DNA of 55,256 bases, taken from Holophaga sp. Its GTDB lineage: Bacteria; Acidobacteriota; Holophagae; Holophagales; Holophagaceae. The DNA is taken from the NCBI GenBank assembly GCA_041908845.1, contig JAYREN010000001.1, forward strand, positions 1 to 55,256, read 5' to 3'. Position numbers and translations under genes: made by a program. This document shows, in pieces, positions 16,155-51,577 of the stretch; the first letter of the stretch is position 1, and the number at the start of each line of letters is the position of its first letter. The notes under the pieces are model-generated. The model was not told the origin of the DNA. It did not search any database and worked only from the letters and a program-made list of their open reading frames with translations.

Positions 16155-16185
16155 GCGGAAACCCCCAGTGCGAGACCCGCGGCCC

Positions 16186-17388: not shown

Positions 17389-17450
17389 GGCGGGTCCACT
17401 CGAGGGCGTGAAGAGGGTTCGTTGAGGTGGTTGAATCCAGGCGATCGGGC

Positions 17451-33861: not shown

Positions 33862-36649
<2,788 letters not shown>

Positions 36650-36940: not shown

Positions 36941-37567
36941 ATGGAACCGATCGTCCTGGATCATCCCCTCGCTCACCACAAGCTCACCCTCGCAAGGGAC
37001 CGGAAAACCCATGGCAGCCTCTTTCGGCAGCTGATCGAGGAACTCGGATTGCTGCTCGCGGTGGAGAGCACACGCAACCTGCCCACCGTGACCATCGTCG
37101 TAGAAACCCCACTGGAGCGCATCCAGGGGCAACGGCTGAACCCCCTCGATCCGGTGCTCGTGCCCGTGCTCCGGGCAGGCCTCGGCCTGCTCCCCTCCTT
37201 CCTCCAACTCCTCCCCACCGCCAAGGTGGGCCACCTCGGGCTCTACCGGGACCATGACTCCCTGGTTCCGGTGCCCTACTACCGCAACTTTCCCCCGCTC
37301 CTGGAGGAACGCCCGGTCTTCGTCCTGGACCCCATGCTCGCCACCGGCGGCAGCGCCTCGGAGGCTGTGCGCCAGTTGAAGGCCGCGGGCGCGCGCCAGA
37401 TCACGCTGGCCTCCGTCCTCGCCGCCCCGGAGGGCATTGCTCGCCTCCAGGCGGATCACCCAGATCTCCGGATGGTCGTCGCCGCCATCGACCGCCAGCT
37501 GAACGAGCGCGGCTACATCCTTCCCGGCCTCGGCGATGCCGGAGATCGGATCTTCGGTACGGCCTGA
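36941..37567 (+). CDS. upp: Uracil phosphoribosyltransferase
   Basis: ATG 36941 follows GGAG at 36931; the track ORF's upstream extension was discarded. The PRPP loop is VFVLDPMLATGGSA and the C-terminus is YILPGLGDAGDRIFGT. Confidence 0.93.
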   Translation: MEPIVLDHPLAHHKLTLARDRKTHGSLFRQLIEELGLLLAVESTRNLPTVTIVVETPLERIQGQRLNPLDPVLVPVLRAGLGLLPSFLQLLPTAKVGHLGLYRDHDSLVPVPYYRNFPPLLEERPVFVLDPMLATGGSASEAVRQLKAAGARQITLASVLAAPEGIARLQADHPDLRMVVAAIDRQLNERGYILPGLGDAGDRIFGTA

Positions 37568-37599
37568 GGCGGGTCAGGGCCACATCATATCTATTGTCA

Positions 37600-39324
37600 A
37601 TGTCGCCCATGCAGTCAGCGGAAAGGCTGTTCTCGATGAGCAAACCGGTCAGGCATTGGATCATTCAAAGCACCGGCGCTCTCGGTGATGTCTGTATGGC
37701 GCTCTGCGCCTGTAAGGCGCTCAGGGTGGCTGACCCCAGTTGTTCAATCTGGTTCGTGACCAGTCCCAACCACCTACCGTTGGCAGCGGCCTGCCCCTAC
37801 ATAGACGAATTCTTTGCCTATGGGAATTACGTCCGGATCGTCGATGCCATGCACGAGGCCGCCTGGCGCAATCCCGATTTCGCCTTTCGGCTCCTCGACC
37901 ACGTCCGGTTCGGCCTGGACCCCCTAAATCAAGTGGAGGCCTACCTCGCCAACCTCAAACAGCCACTCTGCCAGGCCGACAGCAAGACCCTGGACCTGAT
38001 CCTCCCCACCCCTACCTCGGGCTCCACCCCGGAACCCCTCCCGCCATGCCCAACTGGGAAACGCCGGATCGTGTTCCACGCCGCCCATAACGATCCCAAT
38101 CGCACTTGGCCGAAGCAGGCCTGGGAGGCCCTCGGCCGAAAGGTGCTAAACGAAGGACATCAACTGATCCTTATAGGGGAAAGCGCTATCAATTTTCAGG
38201 AGAAAGCCTTCTGCCTGGATCTTCCCGGGGCCATTGATTTCCTGGGCCAGTTCGATTCCCTCAAGGTCGTGGAACTCCTGAGGCTCTGTGACCTCTTCGT
38301 TTCTTCCGATAGCGGCCCAATCCAACTGGCCGGAGCATCGGACATTGCCATTTGCGGTATCTACACCGCCGCTGCAGGGCGCAGCCGTATTCCCTTCCGC
38401 CACGGACAGCCCTTATGGGGCGCCAGTCTAGTCGAACCTGAATGTCCCCACCGGGCCTGCTTCCGCTTCATGTCCGCGCCGGAACACATCAAGCATTTTC
38501 AACAGGCACTGAAGGAGGGAGGAAGAGTCATCAACGATCTACTGTCCACGTGGTGCCTGGAGGCTGACACCTATCACTGCCTCCGTGACATAACACCAGA
38601 AAGGGTTTGGCAGGCCATGACCCCTTGGATCCTGGTCACACCGATGGAACGGGAGGCCATGCTCAAGCAGGTGGAAACCATAGCAGCCTCCGGACAACCC
38701 CAACGTGCTCTAAATCTTTTGGAGACGTTGCCAGAGGTCCCATCCGAGGCAGCAACGGTCATGCTCCGTGCACAGCTACTCCAGAGCCTTGGTCGAGTGG
38801 ACGAGTCCTTCGAGCTGCTGCGACAGTGGCTACCCTTGTGGCCCTTGCATGGTGGAGTGGTCAACCTGATGGGGCTCGCCAGCCTTCGCGCAGGGGACAG
38901 CGACGCCGCCCGGAAATTCTTCAATAAGGCCAAGGACCTTCCGGATTCCGGGCACGCCGTGTCTCGCAATCTCGCATTCCTGGACGCGCTCCAGGCCCTG
39001 GAGACGAATTCCCTGGATCAAACGATAAGCGCCCTGGACGACATCATCGGAATGCCCTCCGGCTTCGATACCGTGGGAGAAGGCGAGATCGCGGTGCTCC
39101 GCCTCACGGTCATGCTTCTCCGAGGCCACTTGGAGGATGGACTACGCTTTGCGGACCAGGCCCTTTGTCAGGAAAAGCAGAACGCTGATCTCCACTTTCT
39201 GAGAGGAGAGCTCCTGCTCCGACTCGATTTGCCGACAGAGGCCAGGAGTTCGTTCGAGGCCTGCCTTTCCTTGAGCCCGGCTCATGCCCTGGCCACAGAA
39301 CACCTCAAGGCACTCACGACCTGA
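37600..39324 (+). CDS. GT9-like (heptosyltransferase-fold) glycosyltransferase with C-terminal TPR domain
   Basis: The N-terminal half has GALGDV, NDPNRTWPKQAWEALG and FVSSDSGPIQLAGA (the GT9 DSGP.HLA motif). The C-terminal 230 aa or so are TPR-like helices. The start is ambiguous (TTG 37594, ATG 37600, 37609 or 37636). Confidence 0.75.
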   Translation: MSPMQSAERLFSMSKPVRHWIIQSTGALGDVCMALCACKALRVADPSCSIWFVTSPNHLPLAAACPYIDEFFAYGNYVRIVDAMHEAAWRNPDFAFRLLDHVRFGLDPLNQVEAYLANLKQPLCQADSKTLDLILPTPTSGSTPEPLPPCPTGKRRIVFHAAHNDPNRTWPKQAWEALGRKVLNEGHQLILIGESAINFQEKAFCLDLPGAIDFLGQFDSLKVVELLRLCDLFVSSDSGPIQLAGASDIAICGIYTAAAGRSRIPFRHGQPLWGASLVEPECPHRACFRFMSAPEHIKHFQQALKEGGRVINDLLSTWCLEADTYHCLRDITPERVWQAMTPWILVTPMEREAMLKQVETIAASGQPQRALNLLETLPEVPSEAATVMLRAQLLQSLGRVDESFELLRQWLPLWPLHGGVVNLMGLASLRAGDSDAARKFFNKAKDLPDSGHAVSRNLAFLDALQALETNSLDQTISALDDIIGMPSGFDTVGEGEIAVLRLTVMLLRGHLEDGLRFADQALCQEKQNADLHFLRGELLLRLDLPTEARSSFEACLSLSPAHALATEHLKALTT

Positions 39325-40543
39325 TGGGTCGCCACAGCATTTGTTCATAGGCATCTGAGTCTAGAAGCTGCCCTAGATCCAGAGGCGGAATGCCCAGCCC
39401 CGGGTCGGCCGGGGAGACAAGCAGCCTCGGCTTCGTCCCGGAGGATGCCAGAGCGTGTCGCACCCCCTCCGTGACCGCCTCGCCCGGGATCTGCCCAAGG
39501 CAGTGGTGCCCCCCTTGATCGCAGGCCCAATCACAGAAATAGCAGGCCAGGGGGTGACAGACCACCGTCGCCCAGGCACTCACTGGCGCGTAACGCCCAA
39601 AGGCTCCACCGCCAACGAGGACGACATGGGGTACCTTTCGAGCGGCGCAGAGGAAAACCCAGGGCCCCTCTACACCCACCACCACCCTGCACAAGGAAAG
39701 CGTTTCCAGCACCTCGGAAGCAGCGAGCGAACCCCGGAGATCCAGACACCGCGATTTCCCCCACCATGCCACATCTTCCCCAAGCGCTCCACGGCCTCCT
39801 GGCCCTAGGAGAATGACCCCCATGTTCGGATCCGAGTGAAGAATGGGCCCCAGAGACTCACCCCAGGCATGAAAACCTGTCGAATCCCCCGGGCCACACC
39901 ACAGGCCTAGCCAAGCGGATGGTTTTGACCCGCCCTTCGCCCCCAAACGCCTGGCTGAAGATCGGCATGCCTCCTTGCAGACTGGCCATGAAAGTCGCTC
40001 CTCTCCGGGGTCCATTCCTAGGGCCAGGACAAAATGGCGATACCGGTCCGGTTCAGCGTGGGGCGCGTCCAGAAGATCGACGAGGTGCGTATAGAAGCCG
40101 TCCCAGCCATTGGCATCGATTTCATCCTCACCCCGGTTCACTGCTGTCTTCCAGCCAATCCGTTCAGGGGCATCACTGGCCAGAATGGCTATGTCCACAA
40201 GGGCATTTCGTGTGGGAGAGGGCACCAGCGCCAAATCGAATTTTTCTGGCCGGATGGAATTAATCAGCTGTCTCACCGCTATTTCTTCCCAAATCGGGAT
40301 CGCCAGCGCCATCTCCGCGTTTTCCGGAATGGCGATCACGCCATCAATCCCAGGATGGGCCTGGACGGCCCCGAGTTGGCCGGCGGGGACCAGCGCCGTG
40401 ATTTTTGCATTAGGGTGGCGCACCCGAAGCCCATGAAGGAGGCACCCAGCGAGGATTGCCTCGGGCAACCCCAGATTGAGCACCACAAGAATCTTCTGAA
40501 TCGAGTCCGCGGGACGGTGAAAGGGGGCCTTCGGCAATGTCAT
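39314..40543 (-). CDS. GT9-like glycosyltransferase
   Basis: KILVVLNLGLPEAILAGCLLHGLRVRHPNAKITALV is a GT9-type N-terminus. The second Rossmann half contains VGVEGPWVFLCAA. The start overlaps the stop of the upstream gene by 4 nt. Confidence 0.65.
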   Translation of the reverse strand: MTLPKAPFHRPADSIQKILVVLNLGLPEAILAGCLLHGLRVRHPNAKITALVPAGQLGAVQAHPGIDGVIAIPENAEMALAIPIWEEIAVRQLINSIRPEKFDLALVPSPTRNALVDIAILASDAPERIGWKTAVNRGEDEIDANGWDGFYTHLVDLLDAPHAEPDRYRHFVLALGMDPGEERLSWPVCKEACRSSARRLGAKGGSKPSAWLGLWCGPGDSTGFHAWGESLGPILHSDPNMGVILLGPGGRGALGEDVAWWGKSRCLDLRGSLAASEVLETLSLCRVVVGVEGPWVFLCAARKVPHVVLVGGGAFGRYAPVSAWATVVCHPLACYFCDWACDQGGHHCLGQIPGEAVTEGVRHALASSGTKPRLLVSPADPGLGIPPLDLGQLLDSDAYEQMLWRPIRS

Positions 40544-41901
40544 GGGAGCACCTTCGGGGACCGAGGGCAGCCATTCAAGGCCGACTCAAGGCGATTTACG
40601 GCATCAGGAAAGCCGTGTCGCTCACGGATGAAGGCCTTGGCCTGTGCACCCAGGCGAGCAGTCAGAGCGCCATCCTCCCATAGGCGGAGGCAAGCCCGAG
40701 CGAAATCGTCCGGGCTATTGGCGACCAACCCTTGATGCCCATCCTCAAGGCCGCAGGCTAATGCAATTCCTGCAAACGAAACCACCGGCACCCCACACGC
40801 CATGGACTCCATGACCTTCACCTGTTGGCCGGTGCCACCCAGCAGTGGGCAGATCGAAAACCGCGCATCCGCATACAGGGTATCGAGGTCGTCCACAAAG
40901 CCGAGCAGGTCCAAGCCCGGAGTGGGGAGCAAATGCTTGCAAATCGGGCCCGCCACCCGGAGCCGGAAGTCGGGTGCGGAACGCAGGATGATCGGCAGAA
41001 TGTGCTGGACGAAATTGGCGAGCCCCTGAAGATTGAAACAATTCATGGCAGCCAAAAAAATGGGGGCTCCGGCGTATCTATTGGGCAGATCTCGCGGTTC
41101 GAAAACCAGTGGCAGATGGTGGACTCTGGCGGGGGACAGGTGGCGCTGAAAGATCTGACCCTCCCAGTCGGACACGGCAATTGCCAGATCGAACGCATCC
41201 ACTGCGGCAAGTTCCGCCTCCAATCCTTCCACGGTGTCGAGGCGAATGGCCTCCAGGAAACTGTGATGGACCACCCTTGGCGATAGCTTAACTAGGTCGT
41301 ACGGGCCACCCTTGAAGTGGGGATTCAATTGGGCCTGAAGGTGCGCGTTCAGAGATAGCAGATCCTGGCTCAGGAGCACCTTAGTGATGCTGCGCGCAGA
41401 AGGAGAGCACGCGAGAGGCGCCCACTTCGCATAGTTCACGAGCAGCAGGTCTGGCGCTTCCCGTTCTAGAAATGTTTCAAACCAAGTTCGCAGCCCAGGA
41501 GGATTCCATCGGCTCGTTTCAAAATTGGTCTGCCACGAAAACCGAACCGAGCACCAAGCCCAATCCGAACTACGAGGCTCATAGATGTGAACCTTCGCTG
41601 CGAAATCTCGCTCGAAGGCCCTCTTTCGTTCCTCCGTCCAAGGCTCATCGTGAAAGAGTGGGGAGGAAGCCACGGTCAGATCAAAACCCAACGCCTGGAA
41701 CATTCGCACAACTTGACAGAAGTATCTATGTGCTCCAGTTGCACTTGGATATGGACTAAATGGGACGAAGACCACTGCCCGGCCTCGTCTGCGTGACATG
41801 GACACCAGCATATCTCCAGAGAACCAAGGTTGAATTCGACTACTCTGCCACACGGCACGAGACTTGGGTTTCGAATTCCACAGAGGAGGGACCTGATTCA
41901 C
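40540..41901 (-). CDS. GT-B glycosyltransferase (GT4/GT1-like)
   Basis: The C-terminal motif is CPLLGGTGQQVKVMESMACGVPVVS...GLVANSPDDF. The true start may be an internal Met at 41811 or 41799 (MSRRRGRAVVFVPFSPYP). Confidence 0.7.
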   Translation of the reverse strand: MNQVPPLWNSKPKSRAVWQSSRIQPWFSGDMLVSMSRRRGRAVVFVPFSPYPSATGAHRYFCQVVRMFQALGFDLTVASSPLFHDEPWTEERKRAFERDFAAKVHIYEPRSSDWAWCSVRFSWQTNFETSRWNPPGLRTWFETFLEREAPDLLLVNYAKWAPLACSPSARSITKVLLSQDLLSLNAHLQAQLNPHFKGGPYDLVKLSPRVVHHSFLEAIRLDTVEGLEAELAAVDAFDLAIAVSDWEGQIFQRHLSPARVHHLPLVFEPRDLPNRYAGAPIFLAAMNCFNLQGLANFVQHILPIILRSAPDFRLRVAGPICKHLLPTPGLDLLGFVDDLDTLYADARFSICPLLGGTGQQVKVMESMACGVPVVSFAGIALACGLEDGHQGLVANSPDDFARACLRLWEDGALTARLGAQAKAFIRERHGFPDAVNRLESALNGCPRSPKVLP

Positions 41902-41958
41902 CTAGCGAATTCGAGCTAGGATTGGGGATCTGCCAGACAGCTGAATAAAGGGGATCAT

Positions 41959-44118
41959 GTGAGGATCGAGCGCATTGTTTTAACGGGCGATTTCTTCCGG
42001 ACTTCGGATCACCGCGAGCCAAACCAACTCGGCAACGTCTTCAGGTTGCACGGTCTGATTTCAAAAGCGTTGGTCAAAGCAACGGGCATCCAGCCGACCG
42101 TCTGGTTCGGGCAGGAATATCCACTGGGCAGGTGTGAAGGGCAAGGGACTCCTGTGCCGGAGGAATATTTCCGGGCAATGTACAGAACCCCCAGTTTGTT
42201 GTCATGGATTGACACCTTCTTCAAGGAACCAACGGATGCCCTCCTGGAGGCATTGGCGCCCGCATTTGACGGATCCCTGGTCATTGCCTTCGAGTTGTCC
42301 CCCTTACTCGAACGCACACTGGATCGGCTTGGAGTCCCGTGGATCGACATCTTGTGGAGCCCCATACGGTTCCTCCCGGATCTAGCCTTCTCCTTCAGAA
42401 GCTCTCGCCACGTTGACCTTTCCCGTTGTGGCAACCATTGGCTGAAGAGAGGGCATTTGGACCTGGCCGTGGAACACCTCCGCGATTACTACAGCAAGAC
42501 CCCTTGCCTCCGTGGAGATGATCTTGTCTTTTTCGCACAGACCAACGTGGACCGAACCCTCCTGACGCCCCAGGGGCTCTATGCCATCGAAGATGCCGTC
42601 AGCGGCATCTTGGAGCGGTTGGGGGACCGGAAACTCTGGATCAAACCCCACCCGCTTCAGTTAGACAATCCCATCCTTTCTCTCCTGAAAGACAAGGCAC
42701 GGGGCGAGTTGATCCCCGATTCCACCTACGCCCTCCTGGCCTCCGATGTCCCCCTCGAGGTCGTCACCATTTCATCCTCCGTCGCCCATGAGGCGCGGCT
42801 TTTCGGGAAGAAGGTCACCACCTTCAACAGCCATTTCCTCGACCACGTCTATGACGGGCCGATGAGCCTGAACGACTGCTGCACTCCGCCCTTCTGGTCG
42901 CGACTGCTCCAGCCGCTCCTCCCAGTACAGGAAACACCGGAAGAGGAGCCCCTGGCGCCCGTTTCTCCGAACGTCGTCCGCAGAATAGTTGGGTTTTACG
43001 GTCTGGACCAGGCCGTTTGGGGAGATGATCGCCCTGCGGATGTGGATGGCTTGGCCGAACTGTTCTCGAAGGTGGAGGCATTCCTCGAGCTCAGACAGAT
43101 CGAGACTGCAGAAACGCTCGTTCAGGAGAGACTGGAACAAGGCATCGAGGCAGAACGCCTGTGCCTGTCTGTTGCCCTAGGGAACATCCAACTCCAGAAG
43201 GCGGATCCGAACCAGGGGCTTGAGCTTTTCCTTCGTCTGGTCGTGGAGTTCTCGGACGATTCGATCGTCTATGTGAACCTTTGCGGCGCCTTCCTGCAAT
43301 GTGGACAGACGGATTCCGCCAACGCCTGGCTGAAAATCGCCCAGAAAAAGTTCCCGAAGGATCCTGATCTTGCGCAACTCGCCCAATCCTTCCCCGAGGC
43401 CATCTCGAAGGTCCAAACAGAGGATCGGCTCTTCTGGATGGACAAGTATCATGCATGGGAAAAATCCATGCGGACTCATGCCGGTCAGGCCTTCTCGACC
43501 AGGACCCTTCGCAGGATCGAGGCCTACCTGCCCGAACAGGTGGAGTGTTCCGTTGAGACAGGATGCGGAAAATCCACGATCCTGTTTTCTAATCTATCCA
43601 AACACCACAAGGTTTTCGCCTTGGATGACCGTTCCCTGGCGGAGCAGTCCTCGGTCCTCTTCTTCCAGGATTGCCCCATCAGCAGGCCCGAGCGCGTGGA
43701 GTTCATTTATGGACCCACCCAGCGCACGCTACCGCCCTACGCCGAGCACGGCCTGTACGATGTAATTCTCCTGGATGGGCCTCACGGCTACCCTTTCCCG
43801 GAGCTGGAGTACCTCTGCCTGTTCCCGCATCTCAAAAAGGGGGGAATCCTGATCGTGGATGATGTCCAGATCCCCACCATCGGGCGCCTAGGAGACTTCC
43901 TGGCGGAAGACGAGATGTTCGAGCCCTTGGCGTTGGTCGAAGGCACAGCGCTTTTCCGTCGGACAGAGGCCCCGACCTTTGACTCCTGCGGCGACGGCTG
44001 GTGGACTCAGCGCTACAACCGGCGTCGCATCTCACCCAAGCGCCCCTTTTTCCTCCAGGACGGCCCCGTAGCTGATCACTTTTCTCCGAGGAAACTCGAC
44101 GAAAAGCTGAATCCCTAA
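41959..44118 (+). CDS. Three-module enzyme: Capsule_synth(KpsC/KpsS)-like glycosyltransferase N-domain, TPR middle, class I SAM-methyltransferase C-domain
   Basis: The start is GTG 41959, after AAAGGGGA. The N-domain has LVFFAQTNVDRTLL and LWIKPHPLQ. The TPR-like segment is near residues 370-480. The C-domain has VETGCGKST (SAM motif I) and VILLDGPHGYPFPE...GGILIVDDV. Confidence 0.65.
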   Translation: MRIERIVLTGDFFRTSDHREPNQLGNVFRLHGLISKALVKATGIQPTVWFGQEYPLGRCEGQGTPVPEEYFRAMYRTPSLLSWIDTFFKEPTDALLEALAPAFDGSLVIAFELSPLLERTLDRLGVPWIDILWSPIRFLPDLAFSFRSSRHVDLSRCGNHWLKRGHLDLAVEHLRDYYSKTPCLRGDDLVFFAQTNVDRTLLTPQGLYAIEDAVSGILERLGDRKLWIKPHPLQLDNPILSLLKDKARGELIPDSTYALLASDVPLEVVTISSSVAHEARLFGKKVTTFNSHFLDHVYDGPMSLNDCCTPPFWSRLLQPLLPVQETPEEEPLAPVSPNVVRRIVGFYGLDQAVWGDDRPADVDGLAELFSKVEAFLELRQIETAETLVQERLEQGIEAERLCLSVALGNIQLQKADPNQGLELFLRLVVEFSDDSIVYVNLCGAFLQCGQTDSANAWLKIAQKKFPKDPDLAQLAQSFPEAISKVQTEDRLFWMDKYHAWEKSMRTHAGQAFSTRTLRRIEAYLPEQVECSVETGCGKSTILFSNLSKHHKVFALDDRSLAEQSSVLFFQDCPISRPERVEFIYGPTQRTLPPYAEHGLYDVILLDGPHGYPFPELEYLCLFPHLKKGGILIVDDVQIPTIGRLGDFLAEDEMFEPLALVEGTALFRRTEAPTFDSCGDGWWTQRYNRRRISPKRPFFLQDGPVADHFSPRKLDEKLNP

Positions 44119-44135
44119 GGCAATCGGGTGCGCTC

Positions 44136-45794
44136 CTATTCCAACGGGGGTGGTTCGAACCCCGATTCCACAACGGGTAAGTCCACGACACCTGCCGGAT
44201 GGTCCCCGTCGAACCCCTGATGTGCCTGAAACGGGAAGAAGGCCCCCAAGCGATCGAGGTCGCCCTCATTGTGCGTCAGTTCTGGCAGCGAAAACCTCTG
44301 GTAACGCCCTATCAGGGCGAGACAGTACCCGCAGCGCACCATCTCGACTTTTCGGCAGTCCACGCCGAGGCGGACTAGGTTGTAGAGCATCAAGCCTAAA
44401 TTGAACACGTGGACATGGCCGCTGACCACCTCGGGCTTAGGGGGGGGCCAGATCAGGCAGAAGGCCCCCCCGGGACGGAGGCAGGAAAAGAACCGTCGCA
44501 GAAATCGCTCTGTGTCTGGGACGTGCTCGATGGTGTGGGAGCTGTAGACAGCATCATAGGTGTCTGGGAGTTGGACTCCCAAGAAGTCCCCAACAAGGTA
44601 GTTGGCGGCGGATCCGGAATACCCCGCCATCACCACTTCCTTAGGGACTAGGTCCACGCCCGTGACGACCATTCCCTTCTCGAAGAATTGACGCCATACG
44701 GGACCTGATCCGCAGCCGATATCCAGGATGGAGGATGCCTCGTACCGCTCGACAAAATACCGGGTCACCTCATCTCGGCCGCCGATGGGTTTTCCCAAAT
44801 CGAAGTGACGCCCGGACTGCTTTTGATGGTGTGGGGACGAGGGCGTCATGGGGCTAGGCTCTAGGACTTCCATGAGCAGGCACACCTCCTCATTCTCCGG
44901 CGCCAACGCGTAAGCCGTGCAGGCGGCTGCGCCGGCCTCATCAAGTTGCCCGGCCCGGAGAAAGGCGCCTCCGAGATTCACGAGCACAAGAGGATCGCTT
45001 GGAAAGTCCCCGGCAAGGCCCTTGAGGATTTCAATCGCCTGTAGGACCTCATCCTGAACCAGCAGGACATTCGCTCGGGCGAGGCGCAGCAAACGGTCTC
45101 CAGGATTGTGTCGGAGCCCCTCACCAAGCGTCTCCTGTGCTTCTTCCAGAGCCTCCGAATTCAGAAGGCTTTGGGCCACGGCAAGCACCTGCTCGACTTC
45201 AAACGAAGCCGGGAGGGGTCGTCCCTTGGTGAAGACAGCTATCTCCCGAGCTGGATCACCCAGGCGTAGCTCTACACGCTCGAGACGATACCTGGCATCG
45301 ACGTCCCGAAGGAGCGCCAACCATTTCCCGGGGGGCATGATGCTCAAGTGGCTGTGGCCGTCGTCGTAGCAGGCGATCTTGTGGAAGGCCATGGCGCTCA
45401 GGGAATCGATCCTGCGAAGAATCTCCGGCAGCGTTTCGGGCGCCAGGTGCTCGAGGAAGTCAGCGCTGACAACCAAATCTGGCTGGCCAACCGGAAGCTC
45501 CCGGTACATGTCCACCCGCTGAAAGGACACGTTGGAATTCCTGGATATCACTTCCCGGATGCGGGGAGAGACGGCCCAGTCGCATCCTGTAACACACCTG
45601 AAAAAGGGCGCGGCCAATTCGATGAACCTGCCGTTCCCGCAGGCAATTTCAAGGAGCGATTCCGCCCCGAATGCCCGGATCTGATCGAGCTCCTCCAGCA
45701 ACCAATTGTTGGCCTGATAACTGGCTTCCTCCTCATGGAGTCGCTGGTAGTAGGCTGCATCTCGAAGAGGATATGGAGGTTCCGGGAGCTTCAT
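44136..45794 (-). CDS. Dual SAM-dependent methyltransferase with central TPR segment
   Basis: The N-terminal methyltransferase has LLEIACGNGRF...VVSADFLEHL. The central part is TPR-like helices. The C-terminal methyltransferase has ILDIGCGSGPVW...YDAVYSSHTIEHV...LRPGGAF. Confidence 0.75.
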   Translation of the reverse strand: MKLPEPPYPLRDAAYYQRLHEEEASYQANNWLLEELDQIRAFGAESLLEIACGNGRFIELAAPFFRCVTGCDWAVSPRIREVISRNSNVSFQRVDMYRELPVGQPDLVVSADFLEHLAPETLPEILRRIDSLSAMAFHKIACYDDGHSHLSIMPPGKWLALLRDVDARYRLERVELRLGDPAREIAVFTKGRPLPASFEVEQVLAVAQSLLNSEALEEAQETLGEGLRHNPGDRLLRLARANVLLVQDEVLQAIEILKGLAGDFPSDPLVLVNLGGAFLRAGQLDEAGAAACTAYALAPENEEVCLLMEVLEPSPMTPSSPHHQKQSGRHFDLGKPIGGRDEVTRYFVERYEASSILDIGCGSGPVWRQFFEKGMVVTGVDLVPKEVVMAGYSGSAANYLVGDFLGVQLPDTYDAVYSSHTIEHVPDTERFLRRFFSCLRPGGAFCLIWPPPKPEVVSGHVHVFNLGLMLYNLVRLGVDCRKVEMVRCGYCLALIGRYQRFSLPELTHNEGDLDRLGAFFPFQAHQGFDGDHPAGVVDLPVVESGFEPPPLE

Positions 45795-45917
45795 GGTCGA
45801 CTCCGCATACTGGCGATGATTCCAGCACCAGATGGCGAAATCGAGAAGTCCGGCTTTAGCCTCAAAAATAATTTACTACATTTGTTTGCAACGTTTAAAT
45901 AATTTTCAAAAAACCCC

Positions 45918-45945
45918 TAAAGAACAGCCCCACCCCACCCGAAAA
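45918..45945 (+). promoter_or_regulatory. Sigma-28 (FliA)-like promoter candidate for the flagellin gene
   Basis: TAAAGAAC-N-CCCGAAAA compares with the consensus TAAA-N15-GCCGATAA. Here the -35 TAAAG is intact, the spacer is 16 nt and the -10 matches 6 of 8. An AT-rich tract lies immediately upstream (45845-45915). Confidence 0.4.
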
Positions 45946-45978
45946 GGTTTAGGTCGGGGGCTCCCCCCAACCAAACCC

Positions 45979-46017
45979 GGCAGCACGGATGCTGCCAAGG
46001 CACATCACGGAGGATGT
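45979..46017 (+). promoter_or_regulatory. Two GGA-loop hairpins in the flagellin 5' leader (candidate CsrA binding sites; the second sequesters the SD)
   Basis: Hairpin 1 is GGCAGCA-CGGA-TGCTGCC (45979-45996). Hairpin 2 is ACATC-ACGGAG-GATGT (46002-46017), which contains the GGAGGA SD just before ATG 46019. Confidence 0.55.
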
Positions 46018-46018
46018 C

Positions 46019-46672
46019 ATGCCTTCTATTCTCAATAACGTTGCGGCTCTCACCGCCACCCGTCAGCTGGGTATCACCTCGATCGGCATGAGGCAGACCA
46101 TCGAGCGCCTCACCACCGGCAAGCGCATCAATCACGCTTCCGATGACGCCGCGGGCCTGGCGAACGCCAACAGCTATCTGGCTGATTCCAAGGTCGCCAC
46201 CGAGCGTCGCAAGCTCGCCACCCAGGACTACTACGCGGCTGCGGCTGATGATGGTTACCTGGATGAGGCTACCAACCTGATCATGCGCACCATGGAACTG
46301 GCCGCCGGTGGCAACGCCTCCGCCGCTGAAATGGCGTCGGTTTCCGCCCTGGCCATTGCTGCTGCCGCCAAAACTAGCGCCGCCACTTCTGTATCGGCCA
46401 TTACCGACCTAGCCTCGGCTTCCACCGCTCTGGGCGTGGTCAACACGGCCCGCAGCACCATCGCGGCCACCATGGCCGAGGCTCTGAGCAACGCCAACCT
46501 CTACGGTATCGAGGCTGAAGCCAAGACCGCCCAGATGAGCAACATCATGGATGCCGATATGGGCGCCGAGGTGGTGAGCCTCACCAAGTGGCAGATCCTG
46601 AGCCAGTCGGGCACCAGTGCGCTGACCAACGCGAATCAGGCGAGTCAGACCGTACTCGGTCTCCTCCGGTAG
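46019..46672 (+). CDS. fliC: Flagellin, unusually short (217 aa)
   Basis: The N-terminus is MPSILNNVAALTATRQLGITSIGMRQTIERLTTGKRINHASDDAAGLA. The C-terminus is IMDADMGAEVVSLTKWQILSQSGTSALTNANQASQTVLGLLR. The upstream part of track ORF 45989.. was discarded. Confidence 0.92.
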   Translation: MPSILNNVAALTATRQLGITSIGMRQTIERLTTGKRINHASDDAAGLANANSYLADSKVATERRKLATQDYYAAAADDGYLDEATNLIMRTMELAAGGNASAAEMASVSALAIAAAAKTSAATSVSAITDLASASTALGVVNTARSTIAATMAEALSNANLYGIEAEAKTAQMSNIMDADMGAEVVSLTKWQILSQSGTSALTNANQASQTVLGLLR

Positions 46673-46743: not shown

Positions 46744-47130
46744 ATGACCGATCAAGTGAACCCTCTGGGTGGCTTGGTTGCGGGAATGGCGAAGACTATC
46801 CCGGTCGCTTCCCCTGTTCCCTTCAAGCCTCCCCCCAAACCTGCCGAAGCCCGGGCCCCAAGCCCGGAAAGGCGGGACCAAGGTGTGTCCAAGGAAAGCC
46901 TGGAAGCCGCCGCCACCGACGTTCAGGACTACTTCCAGCAGGTGCCCACGGATATCAAGTTCGTGGTGGATAAGGCTACGGGCACCTACTACTTCAAGAT
47001 CATCGATCCTGAGACCCGGGAGATCATCCGCCAAGTGCCATCCGAAGAAGTGTTGGCCATGGCCCGGAAACTGCGGGAACTTAGCAACTCCCGGAATGCC
47101 TCCGGCGTGCTCATGGACAAGGAAGGCTGA
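46744..47130 (+). CDS. flaG: Flagellar protein FlaG
   Basis: The 128-aa product has the conserved FlaG C-terminal block IKFVVDKATGTYYFKIIDPETREIIRQVPSEEVLAMARKL. It lies between flagellin and fliD. Confidence 0.88.
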   Translation: MTDQVNPLGGLVAGMAKTIPVASPVPFKPPPKPAEARAPSPERRDQGVSKESLEAAATDVQDYFQQVPTDIKFVVDKATGTYYFKIIDPETREIIRQVPSEEVLAMARKLRELSNSRNASGVLMDKEG

Positions 47131-47148: not shown

Positions 47149-48792
47149 ATGGCGACAACCATGAGTTTCCAGGGCGTCACGACGGGACTTCAGACCGACA
47201 ATCTGATCAAGGCCATCATCGCCCGGGACAGCGGTGGGGTGGAGCGCCTCCAGGGCCGTCAGGCCCTCAACACCAAGCGCTCCGCCGCCCTGGCGTCCAT
47301 GCGTTCGGGCATGACCAACATCACCGTGAGCATGGCCAAGCTCTTCGACAGCTTCGCCAACCGATCTGTTTCCAGCACGGATTCCACCGGAGCCTTCGCC
47401 ACCGCCACCGCCACCGGGGCGGCCAGCGGTAGTTACGAGGTCAAGGTCGCCTCGGTCGCCACCAAGGGCCAGCTGGGCCCCACCGTGGTGGATGAGCTGC
47501 CCACCACCCTGGCCATGGCGGATGCCAACACGGCGATCACCAGTGGCACCGGAAATTTCACGGTGACCGGCACCGACGGCGTGGCCAAGACCTTTGAACT
47601 CACCAACAACAGCCTCAACGGCCTAAGGGATGCCATCAACGCCTCGGGCGCCGGGGTCACGGCGACCGTCGTCAACACCGGCAAGGGCGGCAATCAGTAC
47701 CAGCTCGTGCTCACGGCCAAGGAGACGGGCACGGGCACCACCAGCGGTGTTGTTTCCCTGCGGGCGTCCGGGTTTACCAGTACCGAGGCTTCCCTGGGCG
47801 ACCTGGCCGGAGGGCTCTCCTCGACTCCAGCGGGAACCGCCAAGGATGCGGTCTTTTCGATCAACGGGATCGAAATGACCCGCAAGAGCAATGTCGTTAC
47901 CGATGCGGTGGACGGGGTCACCTTCACCCTGAAGAAGGGTGACGCCACCAACACCACCACCCTCACTGTGGGCCAAGACAAGGCCAACGCCACGGCGGCC
48001 ATGCAGGATGTCATCGCCAAATTCAACGCGGTTCTCAAGACTTACAAGGATGCCTCGGCGGTCTCCAAGACCGACACGGGAGTCACCAACCAGGGCCCGC
48101 TGACCAGCGATGCGGTGGCCCGCTCGGTCATCAACGACCTGCGCAGCGTGCTCCGGGGCAACCCTGATGGCCTGCCGGATTCTGCCACGTTCAAGTCCGC
48201 CGCGGACCTTGGCATCAAGACCAACGCCGACGGCACCCTGAGTCTGGATACCACGATCTTCCAGGCCGCCCTCGACAAGGATCCGGTGGCGGTCAAGAAC
48301 GTCTTCGCCTTCTCTGGCAGTTCCACGAACGGGGCGGTTTCCTTCGCTTCCGGAACCTCCAAAACGGCCACCGGCCCCGTGGATTTCGCCATCACCACCG
48401 GTGCCGGGGGAACTCTCACGGGCTCGCTCACGGTGGGGGGCACGACGTATGCCGACCTCAGCGTGACCAACGGCGTCCTCACGGGGCCTGCGGGCACTCC
48501 CCTGGAGGGATTGAAGCTGAATGTCACCGGTCCCGGCACGGGCGCACTGACGCTCACTCGAGGCATTGGTTCAAAGCTGCAGGATATGATCACCAGCCTC
48601 ACTTCTTATTCGGGGACCATCGAAACGACTCGCACCAGCATCGAGGCCCAGAACAAGATCCTGGCCACCCGTATCGAGTCCGGGCAGGCCAATCTGGAGA
48701 AGAAACGTCTCGCCCTCAAGGCGCAGTTCGACAAGATGGAGACCATGGTCTCCCAGCTGCGGGCCTCCAGTTCGAGCCTCAGCGGGATCTGA
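47149..48792 (+). CDS. fliD: Flagellar filament capping protein FliD
   Basis: The N-terminus is GVTTGLQTDNLIKAIIARDSGGVERLQ. The C-terminal coiled coil is TSIEAQNKILATRIESGQANLEKKRLALKAQFDKMETMVSQL. Confidence 0.92.
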   Translation: MATTMSFQGVTTGLQTDNLIKAIIARDSGGVERLQGRQALNTKRSAALASMRSGMTNITVSMAKLFDSFANRSVSSTDSTGAFATATATGAASGSYEVKVASVATKGQLGPTVVDELPTTLAMADANTAITSGTGNFTVTGTDGVAKTFELTNNSLNGLRDAINASGAGVTATVVNTGKGGNQYQLVLTAKETGTGTTSGVVSLRASGFTSTEASLGDLAGGLSSTPAGTAKDAVFSINGIEMTRKSNVVTDAVDGVTFTLKKGDATNTTTLTVGQDKANATAAMQDVIAKFNAVLKTYKDASAVSKTDTGVTNQGPLTSDAVARSVINDLRSVLRGNPDGLPDSATFKSAADLGIKTNADGTLSLDTTIFQAALDKDPVAVKNVFAFSGSSTNGAVSFASGTSKTATGPVDFAITTGAGGTLTGSLTVGGTTYADLSVTNGVLTGPAGTPLEGLKLNVTGPGTGALTLTRGIGSKLQDMITSLTSYSGTIETTRTSIEAQNKILATRIESGQANLEKKRLALKAQFDKMETMVSQLRASSSSLSGI

Positions 48793-48903: not shown

Positions 48904-50382
48904 TTGAAGGGGAAACAGAGGGTGCATCCGAACCATGCCAAGTTCCTGGCCAGGGCCCATGCCCTTGACCGCTCCGGGCGCGGCCCGGAGGCTCTTGCCG
49001 CCTACCGGGAGTACCTGACCCTGGAACCAGGCCATGCGGAAGCCTGGGCGGATTACGCGGGTCAACTGCTGGTGCTTCGCCAGTCGAAGGAAGCGGAAGC
49101 AGCCTGCGGGAAGGCCCTGGCGCTCGACCCTCGGAACCTTTCCGCGCGCATCAACCTGGGCTGCGTCCACATGCAGAAAGGTCAGTGGGAATCGGCTCTC
49201 GGTCAGTTCCGGGCCGTGCTGGCCGCGAATCCCGGCCGGGTGGATGCCCGCCGCGCCTTGGCGGAGTGTCTCCTGAAGGCGGGGCACCTGGATCAGGCGG
49301 AACAGGAATTGATGCGAATCCTAGGTCAGGACGCCCGGAGCCTTGAGGCCCATCAGCTGCTTGGCCACATCTACTACTCCCAGGGCCGTTGGGAAGATTT
49401 CCAGACCGAGATCGATCGCTTCCGGGTCCTGGACCCTGCCTGTGCCTACCTGGATTTCGAGCAAGGCTTCCTCGATCTGCTGTTCGGACGGATGCCCCAG
49501 GGCTGGAAGGGCCACGAGGCGCGCCTGCGCATTCCCGGCCTAGTGGGACCAACGCGCACCTTTTCTCAACCCGCCTGGCAGGGCGAGTCTTTCAAAGGGA
49601 AGACCCTCCTTCTCTGTTACGAACAGGGGCTGGGGGACACGCTCATGTTCATCCGCTACGCCCCTCAGGTGAAGGCCCTTGGGGGTCGGGTGATTCTCGA
49701 GGCCCAGCCCTCCCTCGCGGCGGTGGCCGCCACCTGCCCTGGAGTGGATCGGGTCATCCCCAGGGGCGAGCCGCTGCCCGCCTTCGATCTCTACGCGTCC
49801 CTGCTCTCCCTGCCCTGGTTGTTCCGCACGGAACTCTCCACCATTCCAGCCGAGATCCCCTATCTGGATGTACCACCCCAGGTGCCCCATCGCCAGGTGC
49901 TTTCGGAACTTCTGGCCCTGACCCAGGGCAGAATCCGCATCGGCCTTGTCTGGGCTGGCAATCCCAACCACAAGCGGGACGGGGAACGCTCCATTCCCGC
50001 GGCGGCCCTGGCCCCCCTGGCCGCCTTGCCGGGGGTGGCCTGGTTCAGTTTTCAGCTGGGACGCACGGATGCTCCGGCCTTGCCCAATCTGGTTCCCCTG
50101 GCGCCCCTGCTCAGTGATTTCACCGATACGGCCTACGCCCTGAGCGGCATGGACCTGGTGATCAGCGTGGATACGGCCCTCACCCATCTTTCCGGAGCTC
50201 TGGGTATTCCCACCCTGCTGCTCCTCACCTTCCAACCGGACTGGCGCTGGATGCTGGACCGGGAGGACAGCCCTTGGTATCCCAGCCTGCATCTGTACCG
50301 ACAGCCCCAGGCGGGGGATTGGGGCTCGGTCATCCGGCGCCTGGTGGATGATTTGGCCCCTGAAGCTCCAGCCCAGCCCTGA
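48904..50382 (+). CDS. TPR-domain protein with C-terminal GT9-like glycosyltransferase fold (candidate flagellin glycosyltransferase), paralogue 1
   Basis: The N-terminal 170 aa or so are TPR repeats. The C-terminal part has LLLCYEQGLGDTLMFIRYAP, RIGLVWAGNPNHKRDGERSIP and MDLVISVDTALTHLSGALGIPT. The start (TTG 48904 or GTG 48922) is uncertain. Confidence 0.75.
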   Translation: MKGKQRVHPNHAKFLARAHALDRSGRGPEALAAYREYLTLEPGHAEAWADYAGQLLVLRQSKEAEAACGKALALDPRNLSARINLGCVHMQKGQWESALGQFRAVLAANPGRVDARRALAECLLKAGHLDQAEQELMRILGQDARSLEAHQLLGHIYYSQGRWEDFQTEIDRFRVLDPACAYLDFEQGFLDLLFGRMPQGWKGHEARLRIPGLVGPTRTFSQPAWQGESFKGKTLLLCYEQGLGDTLMFIRYAPQVKALGGRVILEAQPSLAAVAATCPGVDRVIPRGEPLPAFDLYASLLSLPWLFRTELSTIPAEIPYLDVPPQVPHRQVLSELLALTQGRIRIGLVWAGNPNHKRDGERSIPAAALAPLAALPGVAWFSFQLGRTDAPALPNLVPLAPLLSDFTDTAYALSGMDLVISVDTALTHLSGALGIPTLLLLTFQPDWRWMLDREDSPWYPSLHLYRQPQAGDWGSVIRRLVDDLAPEAPAQP

Positions 50383-51577
50383 AGGATTTCTCGTGGAATC
50401 TCCGCCCCCTCTTTCGTCAACAACCCCTGCTGGAACACCCTCGGGCGGGCGCCTCGAGGATCGGCTGGTGCAAGCGGATGCCTGGGTCCGGGAGGGCAGC
50501 CTCCAGCAGGCTCGCGAACTGCTGCTGCAGTGCCTCGCCCAAGCACCGGACAGTGCGGCCATTCACAGTCGCCTCACGACGGTGTACCTCCGCCTGCGGG
50601 ACTGGAACGGTCTGCGGTCCGAACTCGAATACGCCCAACGAAACCTGCCTGCGGATCTGGCGGAGTACGAGCACAGCTACCTGAGCCTGCTATTCGGCGA
50701 GATGCCCAAGGGCTGGGATCAATGGGAGGTCCGCCTGCGGATCCCCGGCAAGGTGGGACCGCCGCGCACCTTCACCCAGCCTCGGTGGACGGGCGAGCCC
50801 TTCCCCGACCGAACCCTGCTGCTCCACTTCGAGCAAGGCTTCGGCGATACCTTCATGTTCCTGCGCTACGCGCCCCTGGTGAAGACTCGGGGCGGAAGGG
50901 TCGTTCTCCTGGCGCAGAAACAGATCGCCGCGGTGGCCGCCACCTGTCCCGGCATCGATGCGGTCATCCCGGAAGGAGCCCCGCTCCCCGCCTTTGATCT
51001 GCACCTTTCCCTGCCCTCCCTTCCCTACGTGTTCCGCACAGATCTGAACTCCATCCCCTGCGAAATTCCTTACCTTGACGTGCCCGAACAAGTGCCCAAC
51101 CGTCAGGCGCTCGCTCGCCTTCTGGCCAAGGGCGATGGGCGGGTGCGCATCGGCTGCTCGTGGGCGGGGAGCCCCAAGCACAAGCGGGACAAGGAGCGCT
51201 CCATTCCATTGAAGACCTTTGGTCTGCTGGCGGCGCTGCCCGACGTGGCCTGGTACAGCTTCCAGTTCGGGGTGATGAACAACCCGGCCCTGCCGGGCAT
51301 CACCCCCCTTGCCCCTGCCCTGCAGAATTTTTCAGACACCGCCTACGCCCTGAGTGGCATGGACCTGGTGATAACCGTGGACACGGCCCTGGCCCACCTC
51401 GCCGGGGCCATGGGCATCCCAACCCTGCTCCTGGTCCACTTCCAGCCGGATTTCCGATGGTTGCTGAACCGGGAGGATAGTCCCTGGTACCCGACCCTTA
51501 GGATCTTCCGGCAACCCACCCCGGGGGACTGGGAGGCCACCCTTCGGAATGTCGTCCAGGAATTGACGCAGGCGTGA
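50348..51577 (+). CDS. TPR-domain protein with C-terminal GT9-like glycosyltransferase fold, paralogue 2
   Basis: The catalytic half is collinear with paralogue 1 (LLLHFEQGFGDTFMFLRYAP, RIGCSWAGSPKHKRDKERSIP, MDLVITVDTALAHLAGAMGIPT). ATG 50348 overlaps the upstream gene by 35 nt; GTG 50393 is an alternative start. Confidence 0.75.
   Translation: MIWPLKLQPSPEGFLVESPPPLSSTTPAGTPSGGRLEDRLVQADAWVREGSLQQARELLLQCLAQAPDSAAIHSRLTTVYLRLRDWNGLRSELEYAQRNLPADLAEYEHSYLSLLFGEMPKGWDQWEVRLRIPGKVGPPRTFTQPRWTGEPFPDRTLLLHFEQGFGDTFMFLRYAPLVKTRGGRVVLLAQKQIAAVAATCPGIDAVIPEGAPLPAFDLHLSLPSLPYVFRTDLNSIPCEIPYLDVPEQVPNRQALARLLAKGDGRVRIGCSWAGSPKHKRDKERSIPLKTFGLLAALPDVAWYSFQFGVMNNPALPGITPLAPALQNFSDTAYALSGMDLVITVDTALAHLAGAMGIPTLLLVHFQPDFRWLLNREDSPWYPTLRIFRQPTPGDWEATLRNVVQELTQA

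Follow-up and report, generated by a model that had tools for sequence, protein, structure and literature searches.

A strain-variable island beside the flagellin gene of Holophaga sp. may encode cytoplasmic flagellin glycosylation with new enzymology

Introduction

Flagellin glycosylation islands adjoining flagellin genes are known from Pseudomonas aeruginosa (a-type GI), Campylobacter, Aeromonas, and Clostridioides difficile. FlmG of Caulobacter and Brevundimonas uses a TPR domain to bind flagellin and a GT-B domain to select the donor (PMC7591256; 10.1101/2022.03.25.485807); the donor is CMP-Pse or CMP-Leg, and FlmG is reportedly confined to Caulobacterales (10.1101/2023.12.03.569772). Maf-1 of Shewanella oneidensis consists of a MAF_flag10 GT-A domain and a C-terminal TPR that binds flagellin, with Pse as the donor (10.1101/2023.12.03.569772). 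The founding member of GT140, a family of retaining Kdo transferases, is KrkA; it carries a fused ribosyltransferase and polymerises the Escherichia coli K13 capsule, which is exported via an ABC system (PMC12887879). Among protein heptosyltransferases, TibC and AAH act on autotransporters (PMC4358343).

Here we describe five genes, g1–g5, next to the flagellin gene of Holophaga sp., which we are inclined to regard as an island for the cytoplasmic glycosylation of flagellin that varies between strains and involves new enzymology.

Results

Extent and composition of the island

In the window, by which we mean the whole 55,256-nt stretch analysed, five intact genes span positions 37594–45794 (approximately 8.2 kb) directly upstream of the flagellin gene (Table 1), in agreement with a sequence-only reading that had placed five large genes between upp and the flagellin gene. 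DNA homology to the close relative L024 ended at position 37587 and restarted at 45809 (blastn). The G+C content of the island was 58.9% versus 63.0% in the rest of the window, of which it was the lowest-G+C 8.2-kb stretch. GC3 of the island genes was 0.62–0.71, whereas 32 other window genes had a mean of 0.797 and a minimum of 0.723, and all five island genes fell below each of the 32 (Mann-Whitney p=2e-6). These values upheld the compositional difference that the earlier reading had proposed from hand counts of 30/60 and 42/60 G+C, both exact on recount. The sequence comparison indicated that the cassette was acquired or exchanged between upp and the flagellin promoter. The dN/dS values of 0.09–0.27 indicated purifying selection on the island genes, which are accordingly taken as functional.

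Transmembrane segments were predicted in none of the island products, and all five are predicted to be soluble cytoplasmic enzymes. The Wzx, Wzy, WbaP, and ABC-exporter families had no Pfam match among the island genes and the other window ORFs scanned, nor in the Pfam tables of the relatives' islands; by these scans, no lipid-carrier, flippase, or export genes accompany the island, an absence that we count as established. The classical genes Maf and NeuB/PseI, noted earlier as not seen, had no match among 46 window ORFs (Pfam, E<=0.001–0.01). Unlike FlmG systems, the window ORFs scanned contained no Pse or Leg synthesis genes, and sugar-nucleotide synthesis genes were absent from the island. 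No sigma-28 promoter was found upstream of any island gene, which counts against flagellin as the target.

Table 1. Coordinates of the island, its genes, and the adjoining filament locus
Feature	Position	Strand	Evidence
upp (uracil phosphoribosyltransferase), conserved left flank of slot	36941..37567	+	NCBIfam PRK00129, E=1e-75
Exchangeable cassette (island)	37588..45808	.	blastn breakpoints versus L024; low G+C; GC3 test
g1, GT9-fold glycosyltransferase (N-terminal) and TPR (C-terminal)	37594..39324	+	Pfam; 5-orthologue alignment
g2, GT9-family glycosyltransferase without TPR	39314..40543	-	Family profile; AF2 model
g3, GT4 glycosyltransferase	40540..41901	-	Pfam Glyco_trans_1_4, E=3e-20
g4 domain 1, GT140 (KrkA-like), retaining CMP-Kdo-type transferase	41959..42963	+	PDB 9yfx alignment
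g4 domain 2, TPR	43186..43383	+	Pfam TPR_14/TPR_19, weak
g4 domain 3, Methyltransf_24 SAM methyltransferase	43552..44118	+	Pfam, E=4e-10
g5, methyltransferase, TPR, and Methyltransf_11	44136..45794	-	Pfam
Flagellin sigma-28-type promoter, TAAAG-N15-CCCGAAA	45918..45944	+	Conserved in L003, L024, L017
5'-UTR hairpin GGCAGCACGGATGCTGCC, GGA in loop (predicted CsrA-type site)	45979..45996	+	
Minimal flagellin, 217 aa, D0/D1 only	46019..46672	+	Pfam Flagellin_N/C; alignment
flaG	46744..47130	+	Pfam FlaG, E=2e-20
fliD (filament cap)	47149..48792	+	Pfam FliD_N/C
g8, TPR (N-terminal) and GT9-fold GT-B domain (C-terminal), FlmG-like architecture	48904..50382	+	
g9, g8 paralogue with shorter TPR region	50348..51577	+	
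orf95, conserved 95-aa ORF of unknown function	51662..51949	-	No Pfam match
fliS (flagellin chaperone)	51946..52374	-	Pfam FliS, E=5e-25

Glycosyltransferases g1, g2, and g3

The g1 protein matched Glyco_transf_9 at aa 155–260 with 41 bits (cutoff 22) and TPR at aa 365–569 in Pfam; a GD motif was present, and four Cys residues (C284, C289, C321, and C329) were invariant among five orthologues. The true start of g1 is likely near position 37636. The g2 protein had no Pfam match and, in a set of 5.8 billion proteins, just 10 relatives; its family profile matched WaaF (1psw; E=4e-24) and the GT9 structure 3tov (E=8e-17), and the best structural matches of its AF2 model (pLDDT 75, pTM 0.81) were GT9 structures, with a target-normalised TM of 0.72–0.79. 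It also had four invariant Cys residues: C333, C336, C340, and C347. The four-Cys clusters of g1 and g2 lie at the position of the TibC iron finger, and the GT9-fold matches of g2, g8, and g9 included WaaC, WaaF, and TibC. The enzymes share the GT9-type GT-B fold and the N-terminal G-D/E motif with WaaC/WaaF and TibC/AAH (BAHT), but identity with solved GT9 structures was just 12–20%, the N-terminal beta-barrel of TibC was absent, and g1, g8, and g9 carry a TPR fusion that WaaC, WaaF, and TibC do not. For g3, the tabulated coordinates are those of the longest ORF; the orthologues align only from aa 11, and the real start is probably downstream.

Multidomain proteins g4 and g5

The whole g4 gene (41959–44118, plus strand) encodes GT140, TPR, and Methyltransf_24 domains, and neither g2 nor g4 had more than 14 relatives among the 5.8 billion proteins. 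The N-terminal domain of g4 had been called Capsule_synth-like; it had no Pfam match at the E<=0.01 reporting limit, Capsule_synth (KpsC/KpsS) included, and was instead homologous to KrkA (PDB 9yfx; E=2e-16). Conserved residues in this domain were E112, R137, D198, K229-x-H231-P232, Y257, S273/S274, and E278. With roles taken from the equivalent KrkA residues (PMC12887879), the conserved or invariant set comprises the general base Glu (E112), the nucleophile Asp (D198), the HP motif, the Arg responsible for Kdo O5/O7 binding, and the Ser-Ser pair and Glu that contact CMP. The motif is the canonical K-x-H-P in g4 versus S-x-H-P in KrkA. Unlike KrkA, g4 combines its GT140 domain with a TPR and a methyltransferase, and its gene neighbours the flagellin gene, with no export genes present. 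The sequence-only reading had proposed a pathway unlike the described Pse/Leg systems; however, g4 is of the GT140 CMP-Kdo type, and its chemistry is therefore related to that of CMP-ulosonic-acid systems, not wholly apart from Pse/Leg.

A blastp comparison of g4 with g5 showed homology between the g4 TPR and the g5 TPR/linker (E=1.5e-7). The methyltransferase domain of g4, comprising aa 532–636 and the C-terminal tail, had weak PDB matches to the sugar O-methyltransferases 4cdz, 3ssm, and 8ia9 (E=0.03–0.75). In g5, a methyltransferase (aa ~12–190), a TPR (aa ~200–305), and a Methyltransf_11 domain (aa ~340–540) follow one another; both methyltransferase domains were confirmed separately, each with its own homologues, and the nearest plasmid-borne homologues of both were in Sinorhizobium capsule (rkp-3-like) regions. 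Among 1.84 billion, a single 50%-identity cluster representative showed the full g5 architecture.

The filament locus

The sigma-28-type motif of the flagellin promoter had one other copy in the window, ahead of a YjfB_motility gene. A second GGA sits within the flagellin Shine-Dalgarno sequence ACGGAGGA, and CsrA and FliW are encoded in the same window (1110–2201). In the flagellin, Ser/Thr made up 27% of the loop at aa 96–150, and there were six Lys residues in total, one of them in the loop. The two TPR-GT9-like genes noted earlier beyond fliD are g8 and g9, which were 57.6% identical to each other and resemble FlmG in architecture and in being encoded at the filament locus; g1 has the opposite domain order, with the glycosyltransferase first. 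In this order g1 resembles Maf-1, although its fold is GT-B versus GT-A in Maf-1. Flagellin docking through TPR, which the earlier reading had pointed to in FlmG, has experimental precedent in both FlmG and Maf-1 (PMC7591256; 10.1101/2023.12.03.569772).

Slot exchange among relatives

The relatives L003 and L026, whose upp was 99.5% identical, carried the same island at the same position. In L024 the slot between upp and flagellin held a double-GT4 gene and an unknown gene, despite a nearly identical flagellin. In other Holophagaceae the sets upstream of flagellin were NeuB-like with cupin/TPP-enzyme/GT2/methyltransferase, NTP-transferase/dehydratase/DegT (aminosugar-type), or GT9 with a g8-like gene, and some relatives had no island. 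In L025, a g1–g3 sub-block adjoined orf95-fliS, a second insertion point inside the filament locus, and was accompanied by the GDP-heptose genes HddA (E=4e-118) and HddC, a parallel to GT9 heptosyltransferases; in L002, a GT140-like fusion adjoined homologues of GmhA, GmhB-HddC, and HddA. In L001/L016 (808-kb contig), the g1–g4 block was ~62 kb from fla-flaG-fliD, beside prophage-like genes; linkage of island and flagellin is therefore not obligatory.

The core conserved across the family was fla-flaG-fliD-(TPR-GT9)-fliS, with orf95 always upstream of fliS in the relatives compared. The proposal of a modification island gained from the finding of an exchangeable filament-locus cassette; however, the genes that the family keeps in the filament locus are g8/g9, not the island. 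Outside the clade, relatives of the catalytic domains occurred in capsule/polysaccharide loci or standalone, never beside a flagellin gene. In Azospirillum, a member of the TPR-GT9-fold family adjoined a giant calcium-binding RTX-like protein and a type I secretion system, so this family has targets besides flagellin.

Discussion

Like known flagellin islands, the Holophaga island is a variable glycosyltransferase/methyltransferase block adjoining the flagellin gene, varies between close relatives with near-identical flagellin, and is atypical in composition for its genome. It differs from them in its phylum (Acidobacteriota, Holophagaceae), in its enzymes (GT140, GT9, and TPR-fused methyltransferases), and in lacking sugar-nucleotide synthesis genes and Maf.

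We considered whether the island makes a surface glycan that is not on flagellin, for example a glycolipid, a variant of the LPS core, or a polymer resembling a capsule; the upp–fla junction would then be a hot spot at which surface-glycan cassettes recombine, and TPR would assemble a multi-enzyme complex. The LPS inner core is built in the order WaaA/WaaC/WaaF/WaaG, which a GT140 Kdo transferase, two GT9 enzymes, and a GT4 enzyme mirror; the capsule or polysaccharide loci of distant GT140 and methyltransferase relatives, the unlinked g1–g4 of L001, and the lack of sigma-28 promoters at the island genes point the same way. However, no priming transferase, flippase, polymerase, ligase, or ABC exporter occurred in or near the island in five genomes, its products are all soluble, and to our knowledge LPS-core enzymes are normally without TPR fusions. 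Moreover, the block lies within the filament locus at two insertion points that are independent of each other, and in relatives the same slot carries gene sets of the NeuB and aminosugar types, as is typical of flagellin islands. We therefore regard this explanation as unlikely.

The TPR domains could instead recognise FliD, FlaG, hook-associated proteins, pilins, adhesins, or some further secreted or surface protein as the substrate, but this is quite improbable. The Azospirillum neighbourhood of the g8/g9 family and the action of TibC/AAH on autotransporters (PMC4358343) would fit such a target, but the cassette directly adjoins the flagellin promoter, a candidate adhesin was not found nearby (Pfam), the flagellin loop is Ser/Thr-rich, and the partners conserved with these genes are fla, flaG, fliD, and fliS. 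That g5, the island gene closest to flagellin and with a TPR that could bind protein, methylates flagellin lysines in a FliB-like manner and not a glycan is very improbable, since both its methyltransferase domains are closest to those of polysaccharide/capsule loci, lysine-methyltransferase families had no match at E<=0.01, and lysines are so few in flagellin.

For glycosylation of flagellin, we infer the target, the sugars (Kdo, heptose, and O-methyl), and the order of steps from the sequences. The five enzymes probably modify flagellin (217 aa) ahead of its export by the flagellar type III system, and the TPR domains of g1, g4, and g5 would hold them on flagellin, by analogy with FlmG and Maf-1; the conserved g8/g9 enzymes likewise carry TPR. 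TPR domains are generic, and some capsule polymerases carry them too, which counts against this reading. The order is proposed because conservation is nested (g1–g3, then g1–g4, then g1–g5). First, g8/g9 or the TPR-bearing g1 would place a primary O-linked sugar on Ser/Thr of the exposed loop. Heptose-type sugars would then be added by g1 and g2, and a hexose by g3, after which the GT140 domain of g4 may add a beta-linked Kdo or related CMP-activated ulosonic acid by double displacement via Asp198. Finally, the three SAM methyltransferase domains (the g4 C-terminus and both of g5) would O-methylate the glycan. The donors may be drawn from general LPS-type pools, e.g. CMP-Kdo and NDP-heptose, which would explain the absence of sugar-nucleotide synthesis genes from the island. 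Most likely, the island would decorate the filament with an unusual methylated glycan of the Kdo/heptose type.

Gene content and boundaries of the cassette upstream of the flagellin gene

The five open reading frames that the sequence-only reading had listed between upp and the flagellin gene (g1–g5) were all present, and their domain content was checked by a Pfam scan. The closest genome was the chromosome of an uncultured Holophaga sp. MAG, OY760195.1 (L003), with identical synteny, 99.5% identity in upp, and 87–94% identity in the island proteins. When the window was compared with another close relative, L024, whose flagellin was almost identical, DNA homology stopped at 37587, 20 nt past upp, and returned at 45809, approximately 210 bp short of the flagellin start codon. 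The island is a cassette, with limits nearly coincident with the gene span of the earlier reading; g5 begins 224 bp ahead of the flagellin gene and is transcribed divergently from it.

Features of the window and their coordinates
Feature	Position	Strand	Content
FliW	1110–1925		tandem two-domain
CsrA	1938–2201
sigma-28-type promoter	2174–2200		drives YjfB_motility gene
YjfB_motility gene	2220–2399
Bacillosamine-type sugar locus	13269–19379		GT4, hexapeptide acetyltransferase, second GT4, DegT aminotransferase, PglF-like 4,6-dehydratase
Indole-3-glycerol-phosphate synthase	35195–36649	−	C-terminal histone-H1-like (HC2) low-complexity tail
Cassette	37588–45808
g1	37594–39324	+	GT9, TPR
g1 four-Cys segment (aa 284–329)	38443–38580
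g2	39314–40543	−	GT9 by profile and modelled fold
g3	40540–41901	−	GT4
g4	41959–44118	+	GT140-like, weak TPR, Methyltransf_24
g5	44136–45794	−	methyltransferase, TPR, methyltransferase
Flagellin 5′UTR	45945–46018
GGA-loop hairpin	45979–45996
Flagellin	46019–46672		217 aa
g8	48904–50382	+	TPR, GT9 fold
g9	50348–51577	+	TPR, GT9
orf95	51662–51949	−	95 aa, no Pfam family

The interval between upp and the flagellin gene was occupied differently in L024, which carried genes for a double-GT4 protein of 1,072 aa and an unknown protein of 498 aa. In more distant Holophagaceae, the slot directly upstream of the flagellin gene contained an NTP-transferase, a dehydratase, and a DegT aminotransferase (L038), a 655-aa GT9 protein with a g8-like gene (L039), or a transposase (L042), and there was no island in L030 and L035. 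In L017 and L034 the slot held a NeuB-like synthase with a fused cupin domain (2137–3648 and 7737–9245, respectively), neighbored by an acetolactate-synthase-like TPP enzyme, a GT2, methyltransferases, and a radical-SAM enzyme; these genes represent an unusual putative nonulosonic-acid-type pathway. The gene content varied between the window, L003, and L026 on the one hand and L024, L017, L034, L038, and L039 on the other, whereas the flanks and the flagellin gene were conserved, and the order fla-flaG-fliD-(g8 ± g9)-orf95-fliS was kept throughout the relatives compared. In this order, orf95 always lies directly upstream of fliS with a 4-nt overlap; it has orthologues in L003, L016, L017, L024, L025, L034, and L040 and is an uncharacterized filament-locus component of Holophagaceae. 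Upstream of upp, the indole-3-glycerol-phosphate synthase–HC2 fusion was retained in L016, L017, and L025.

The complete g1–g5 module was found in the window, L003, and L026, and smaller modules in L001 (g1–g4) and L025 (g1–g3). In the first three the island adjoins the flagellin gene. L001 is a counter-example: approximately 62 kb of its contig separate g1–g4 from the filament genes, with prophage-like genes alongside the block. In L025, g1–g3 adjoin orf95-fliS, a second insertion point, and are joined there by HddA (E = 4e-118) and HddC homologues as well as by pyruvyl transferases and a TPR-GT34 protein; such GDP-heptose partners were not found in the window.

The two hand counts of G+C in the earlier reading were exact on recount, and the compositional difference they had indicated was borne out (58.9% G+C in the island, 63.0% in the rest of the window), no other 8.2-kb stretch of the window having so low a G+C. 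The GC3 of each island gene (0.62–0.71) fell below even the lowest value among 32 other genes (0.723, with a mean of 0.797; p = 2e-6), and the L001 g1–g4 block was again lower in GC3 than its flanks. Relatives were few: g4 had 14 (only two of full length) and g2 had 10 in 5.8 billion proteins, and the whole architecture of g5 occurred in a single representative out of 1.84 billion clustered at 50% identity, although its single methyltransferase domains, each on its own, were common. The longest-ORF sequence of g4 had no exact match in the database, its relatives being reached by homology, and g1 had no match among plasmid sequences. All island genes were under purifying selection (dN/dS 0.09–0.27). 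Gene decay was ruled out by these ratios and by intact ORFs in three to five genomes.

Domain assignment of the island proteins

The N-terminus of g4 had been labeled Capsule_synth-like, a label that we could not reproduce: the first 335 residues gave no Pfam match at E ≤ 0.01, Capsule_synth (KpsC/KpsS family) included. Instead, residues 107–327 matched the GT140 domain of KrkA (phmmer E = 1.8e-16), the founding GT140 member, which acts as a retaining CMP-Kdo transferase on the K13 capsule of E. coli (PMC12887879); its D193C variant trapped the sugar as a covalent adduct. Glu112, Asp198, and Arg137 of g4 aligned with Glu102, Asp193, and Arg127 of KrkA, and His231-Pro232, Tyr257, Ser273/Ser274, and Glu278 with His227-Pro228, Tyr255, Ser271/Ser272, and Glu276. 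The aligned residues, which cover the general base, the nucleophile, the Kdo-binding Arg, the HP motif, and the CMP contacts of KrkA, were invariant in all 14 known homologues. By similarity and active-site residues, the first 335 residues of g4 are a KrkA-like GT140 domain, and Kdo transfer from CMP-Kdo is predicted. There was no flagellin gene near the distant GT140-like homologues at L004–L015 and L018–L020, and the GT140-like domain alone is not flagellum-associated.

A GT9 assignment with a GT-B fold was obtained by Pfam, profile, or fold match for g1, g2, g8, and g9. The Glyco_transf_9 match of g1 (41 bits) exceeded the gathering score of 22. g2 had no Pfam match; a family profile of its ten known relatives matched E. 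coli WaaF (E = 4e-24) and Veillonella GT9 3tov (E = 8e-17), and the best structural matches of its AlphaFold model (pLDDT 75, pTM 0.81) were GT9 structures, which together place g2 in GT9 by profile and modelled fold. In both g1 and g2 (residues 333–347 in the latter), four invariant cysteines lie close to where the C-lobe ends, at a place equivalent to the Fe(Cys)4 iron finger of the protein heptosyltransferase TibC. This Cys4 cluster may bind a metal and is a hint of a GT9 lineage directed at proteins. The BAHT class (TibC/AAH) is characterized by the iron finger, an N-terminal beta-barrel, and a dodecamer; no beta-barrel domain was seen in g1 and g2, and the profile match to TibC reached only E = 0.12.

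g8 and g9, located beyond fliD, are paralogues with 57.6% identity. Their Pfam GT9 scores were 22.3 and 24.3 bits (cutoff 22), and the model of the C-terminal domain of g8 (AF2, pLDDT 92.9) adopted a GT-B/GT9 fold, with TibC alongside the GT9 enzymes 3tov, WaaC, and WaaF among its best matches. g8 and g9 have the architecture of the FlmG class, an N-terminal TPR followed by a C-terminal GT-B domain. No CMP-Pse/CMP-Leg pathway genes were found with them in the window, where NeuB/PseI/LegI had no match among the 46 ORFs scanned by Pfam. FlmG is reported to be confined to Caulobacterales (10.1101/2023.12.03.569772). The GT domain of g8/g9 gave at least 7,913 matches, Azospirillum, Ralstonia, and Burkholderia replicons among them, and in Rhodovastum one family member is encoded close to flagellin, flaF, and flbT. 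A further TPR-GT9-fold member, in L021 (Azospirillum sp. TSA2s plasmid p2, 84586–101467), is flanked by a giant calcium-binding (RTX-like) protein on one side and a type I secretion system on the other, which suggests that the family may also glycosylate T1SS substrates. The bacillosamine-type sugar locus elsewhere in the window may be part of a general glycosylation or O-antigen pathway.

Flagellin and its regulation

The flagellin consists of D0/D1 only and is Ala-rich, the presumed exposed loop (residues 96–150) containing 27% Ser/Thr and 36% Ala; 10 extra N-terminal residues in the longest ORF are probably not translated. To our knowledge, it is among the shortest flagellins. A sigma-28 motif derived from the conserved sequence preceding flagellin genes was searched for across the window, where copies occurred only before the flagellin gene and the yjfB-like gene. 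Since the motif was never found before island genes, co-regulation was left without support; the genes may belong to an earlier expression class, which is compatible with the scan. The hairpin in the flagellin 5′UTR was conserved in four relatives, and the Shine-Dalgarno sequence carries a second GGA. Both match CsrA binding sites, and a complete FliW-CsrA-flagellin regulatory module is encoded in the window.

Proposed function of the island

Beyond domain identity and synteny, all functions discussed here are what we infer from sequence. No membrane segments were predicted in the five island proteins, and a membrane-bound pathway was ruled out, as no hydrophobic stretch that could form a transmembrane helix was found. 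Neither the window ORFs scanned nor the Pfam tables of the L001, L025, and L026 flanks gave a match to a priming transferase, a flippase, a polymerase, a ligase, or an exporter, and the same ORFs and tables showed none of the export and lipid-anchor families of a group 2-type capsule or LPS-core locus (KpsMT/E/D, KpsC/S, WaaA/WaaL, Wzx/Wzy). Soluble enzymes and absent export genes would fit cytoplasmic protein glycosylation before secretion, as carried out on flagellin by FlmG and Maf, in both of which a TPR domain binds flagellin (PMC7591256; 10.1101/2023.12.03.569772).

The island probably serves to glycosylate flagellin in the cytoplasm. Two features, the GT9 fold and the GDP-heptose genes travelling with g1–g3 in L025, suggest heptose as a component; in L002, a complete GmhA/GmhB-HddC/HddA set adjoins a GT140-like fusion. 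The intact GT140 active site suggests Kdo or another CMP-activated ulosonic acid. Sugar O-methylation is suggested by the nearest plasmid-borne homologues of both g5 methyltransferase domains, which belong to Sinorhizobium capsule regions, and by a weak resemblance of the g4 Methyltransf_24 domain to TylF/MycE-type sugar O-methyltransferases. The first sugar may be installed by the conserved g8/g9 or by the TPR-bearing g1; to judge from the module nesting, g1–g3 would act early and g4 and g5 would add peripheral decorations.

A more far-reaching and rather improbable reading is that capsule- and LPS-core-type enzymes (a retaining GT140 Kdo transferase, two GT9 heptosyltransferase-like enzymes, a GT4, and sugar methyltransferases) were retargeted to protein, each by TPR fusion, and form a cytoplasmic assembly line for a methylated Kdo-heptose, LPS-inner-core-like oligosaccharide on the minimal 217-aa flagellin.

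That the island makes a surface glycan independent of flagellin is unlikely. In its favor, the enzyme set is LPS-core-like, distant homologues occur in capsule context, the L001 g1–g4 copy is unlinked, and the island lacks sigma-28 promoters; against it count the missing export and anchor genes and the repeated placement of the island in the filament locus. A protein other than flagellin as the target, to which the Azospirillum family member beside the RTX-like protein and its secretion system would point, is improbable, and methylation of flagellin lysines by g5 is unlikely.

Characterized flagellin glycosylation mostly involves Maf or FlmG with Pse/Leg, and a few further systems, in Proteobacteria and Firmicutes, use rhamnose, viosamine, or GlcNAc. 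Genomically, the island is a flagellin glycosylation island of a known kind, in which glycan genes adjoin fla and the content varies. What is new is the phylum, Acidobacteriota, the enzyme families (GT140, GT9 with a Cys4 cluster, and the MT-TPR-MT protein), the fusion of TPR to three catalytic types inside one cassette, and the implied Kdo/heptose/methyl chemistry. A full-text literature search found no report of acidobacterial flagellin glycosylation or of natural Kdo- or heptose-containing flagellin glycans; Kdo has so far been placed on flagellin only via Maf promiscuity in E. coli (PMC11339370). If the TPR-retargeting proposal is true, the filament would carry a glycan with Kdo or heptose, the first of its kind on a natural flagellin, g4 would be the first enzyme of the retaining Kdo transferase families to act on a protein, and the newly defined GT140 family would reach beyond capsules. 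TPR fusion would then be a general modular route for redirecting polysaccharide enzymes onto a protein substrate, and the island a compact soluble enzyme set with which Kdo-, heptose-, or methyl-sugar epitopes could be engineered onto a very small flagellin scaffold. In the Holophagaceae, the cassette-swapping slot is a natural system in which to study how filament surfaces diversify, for instance when phages or predators exert pressure.
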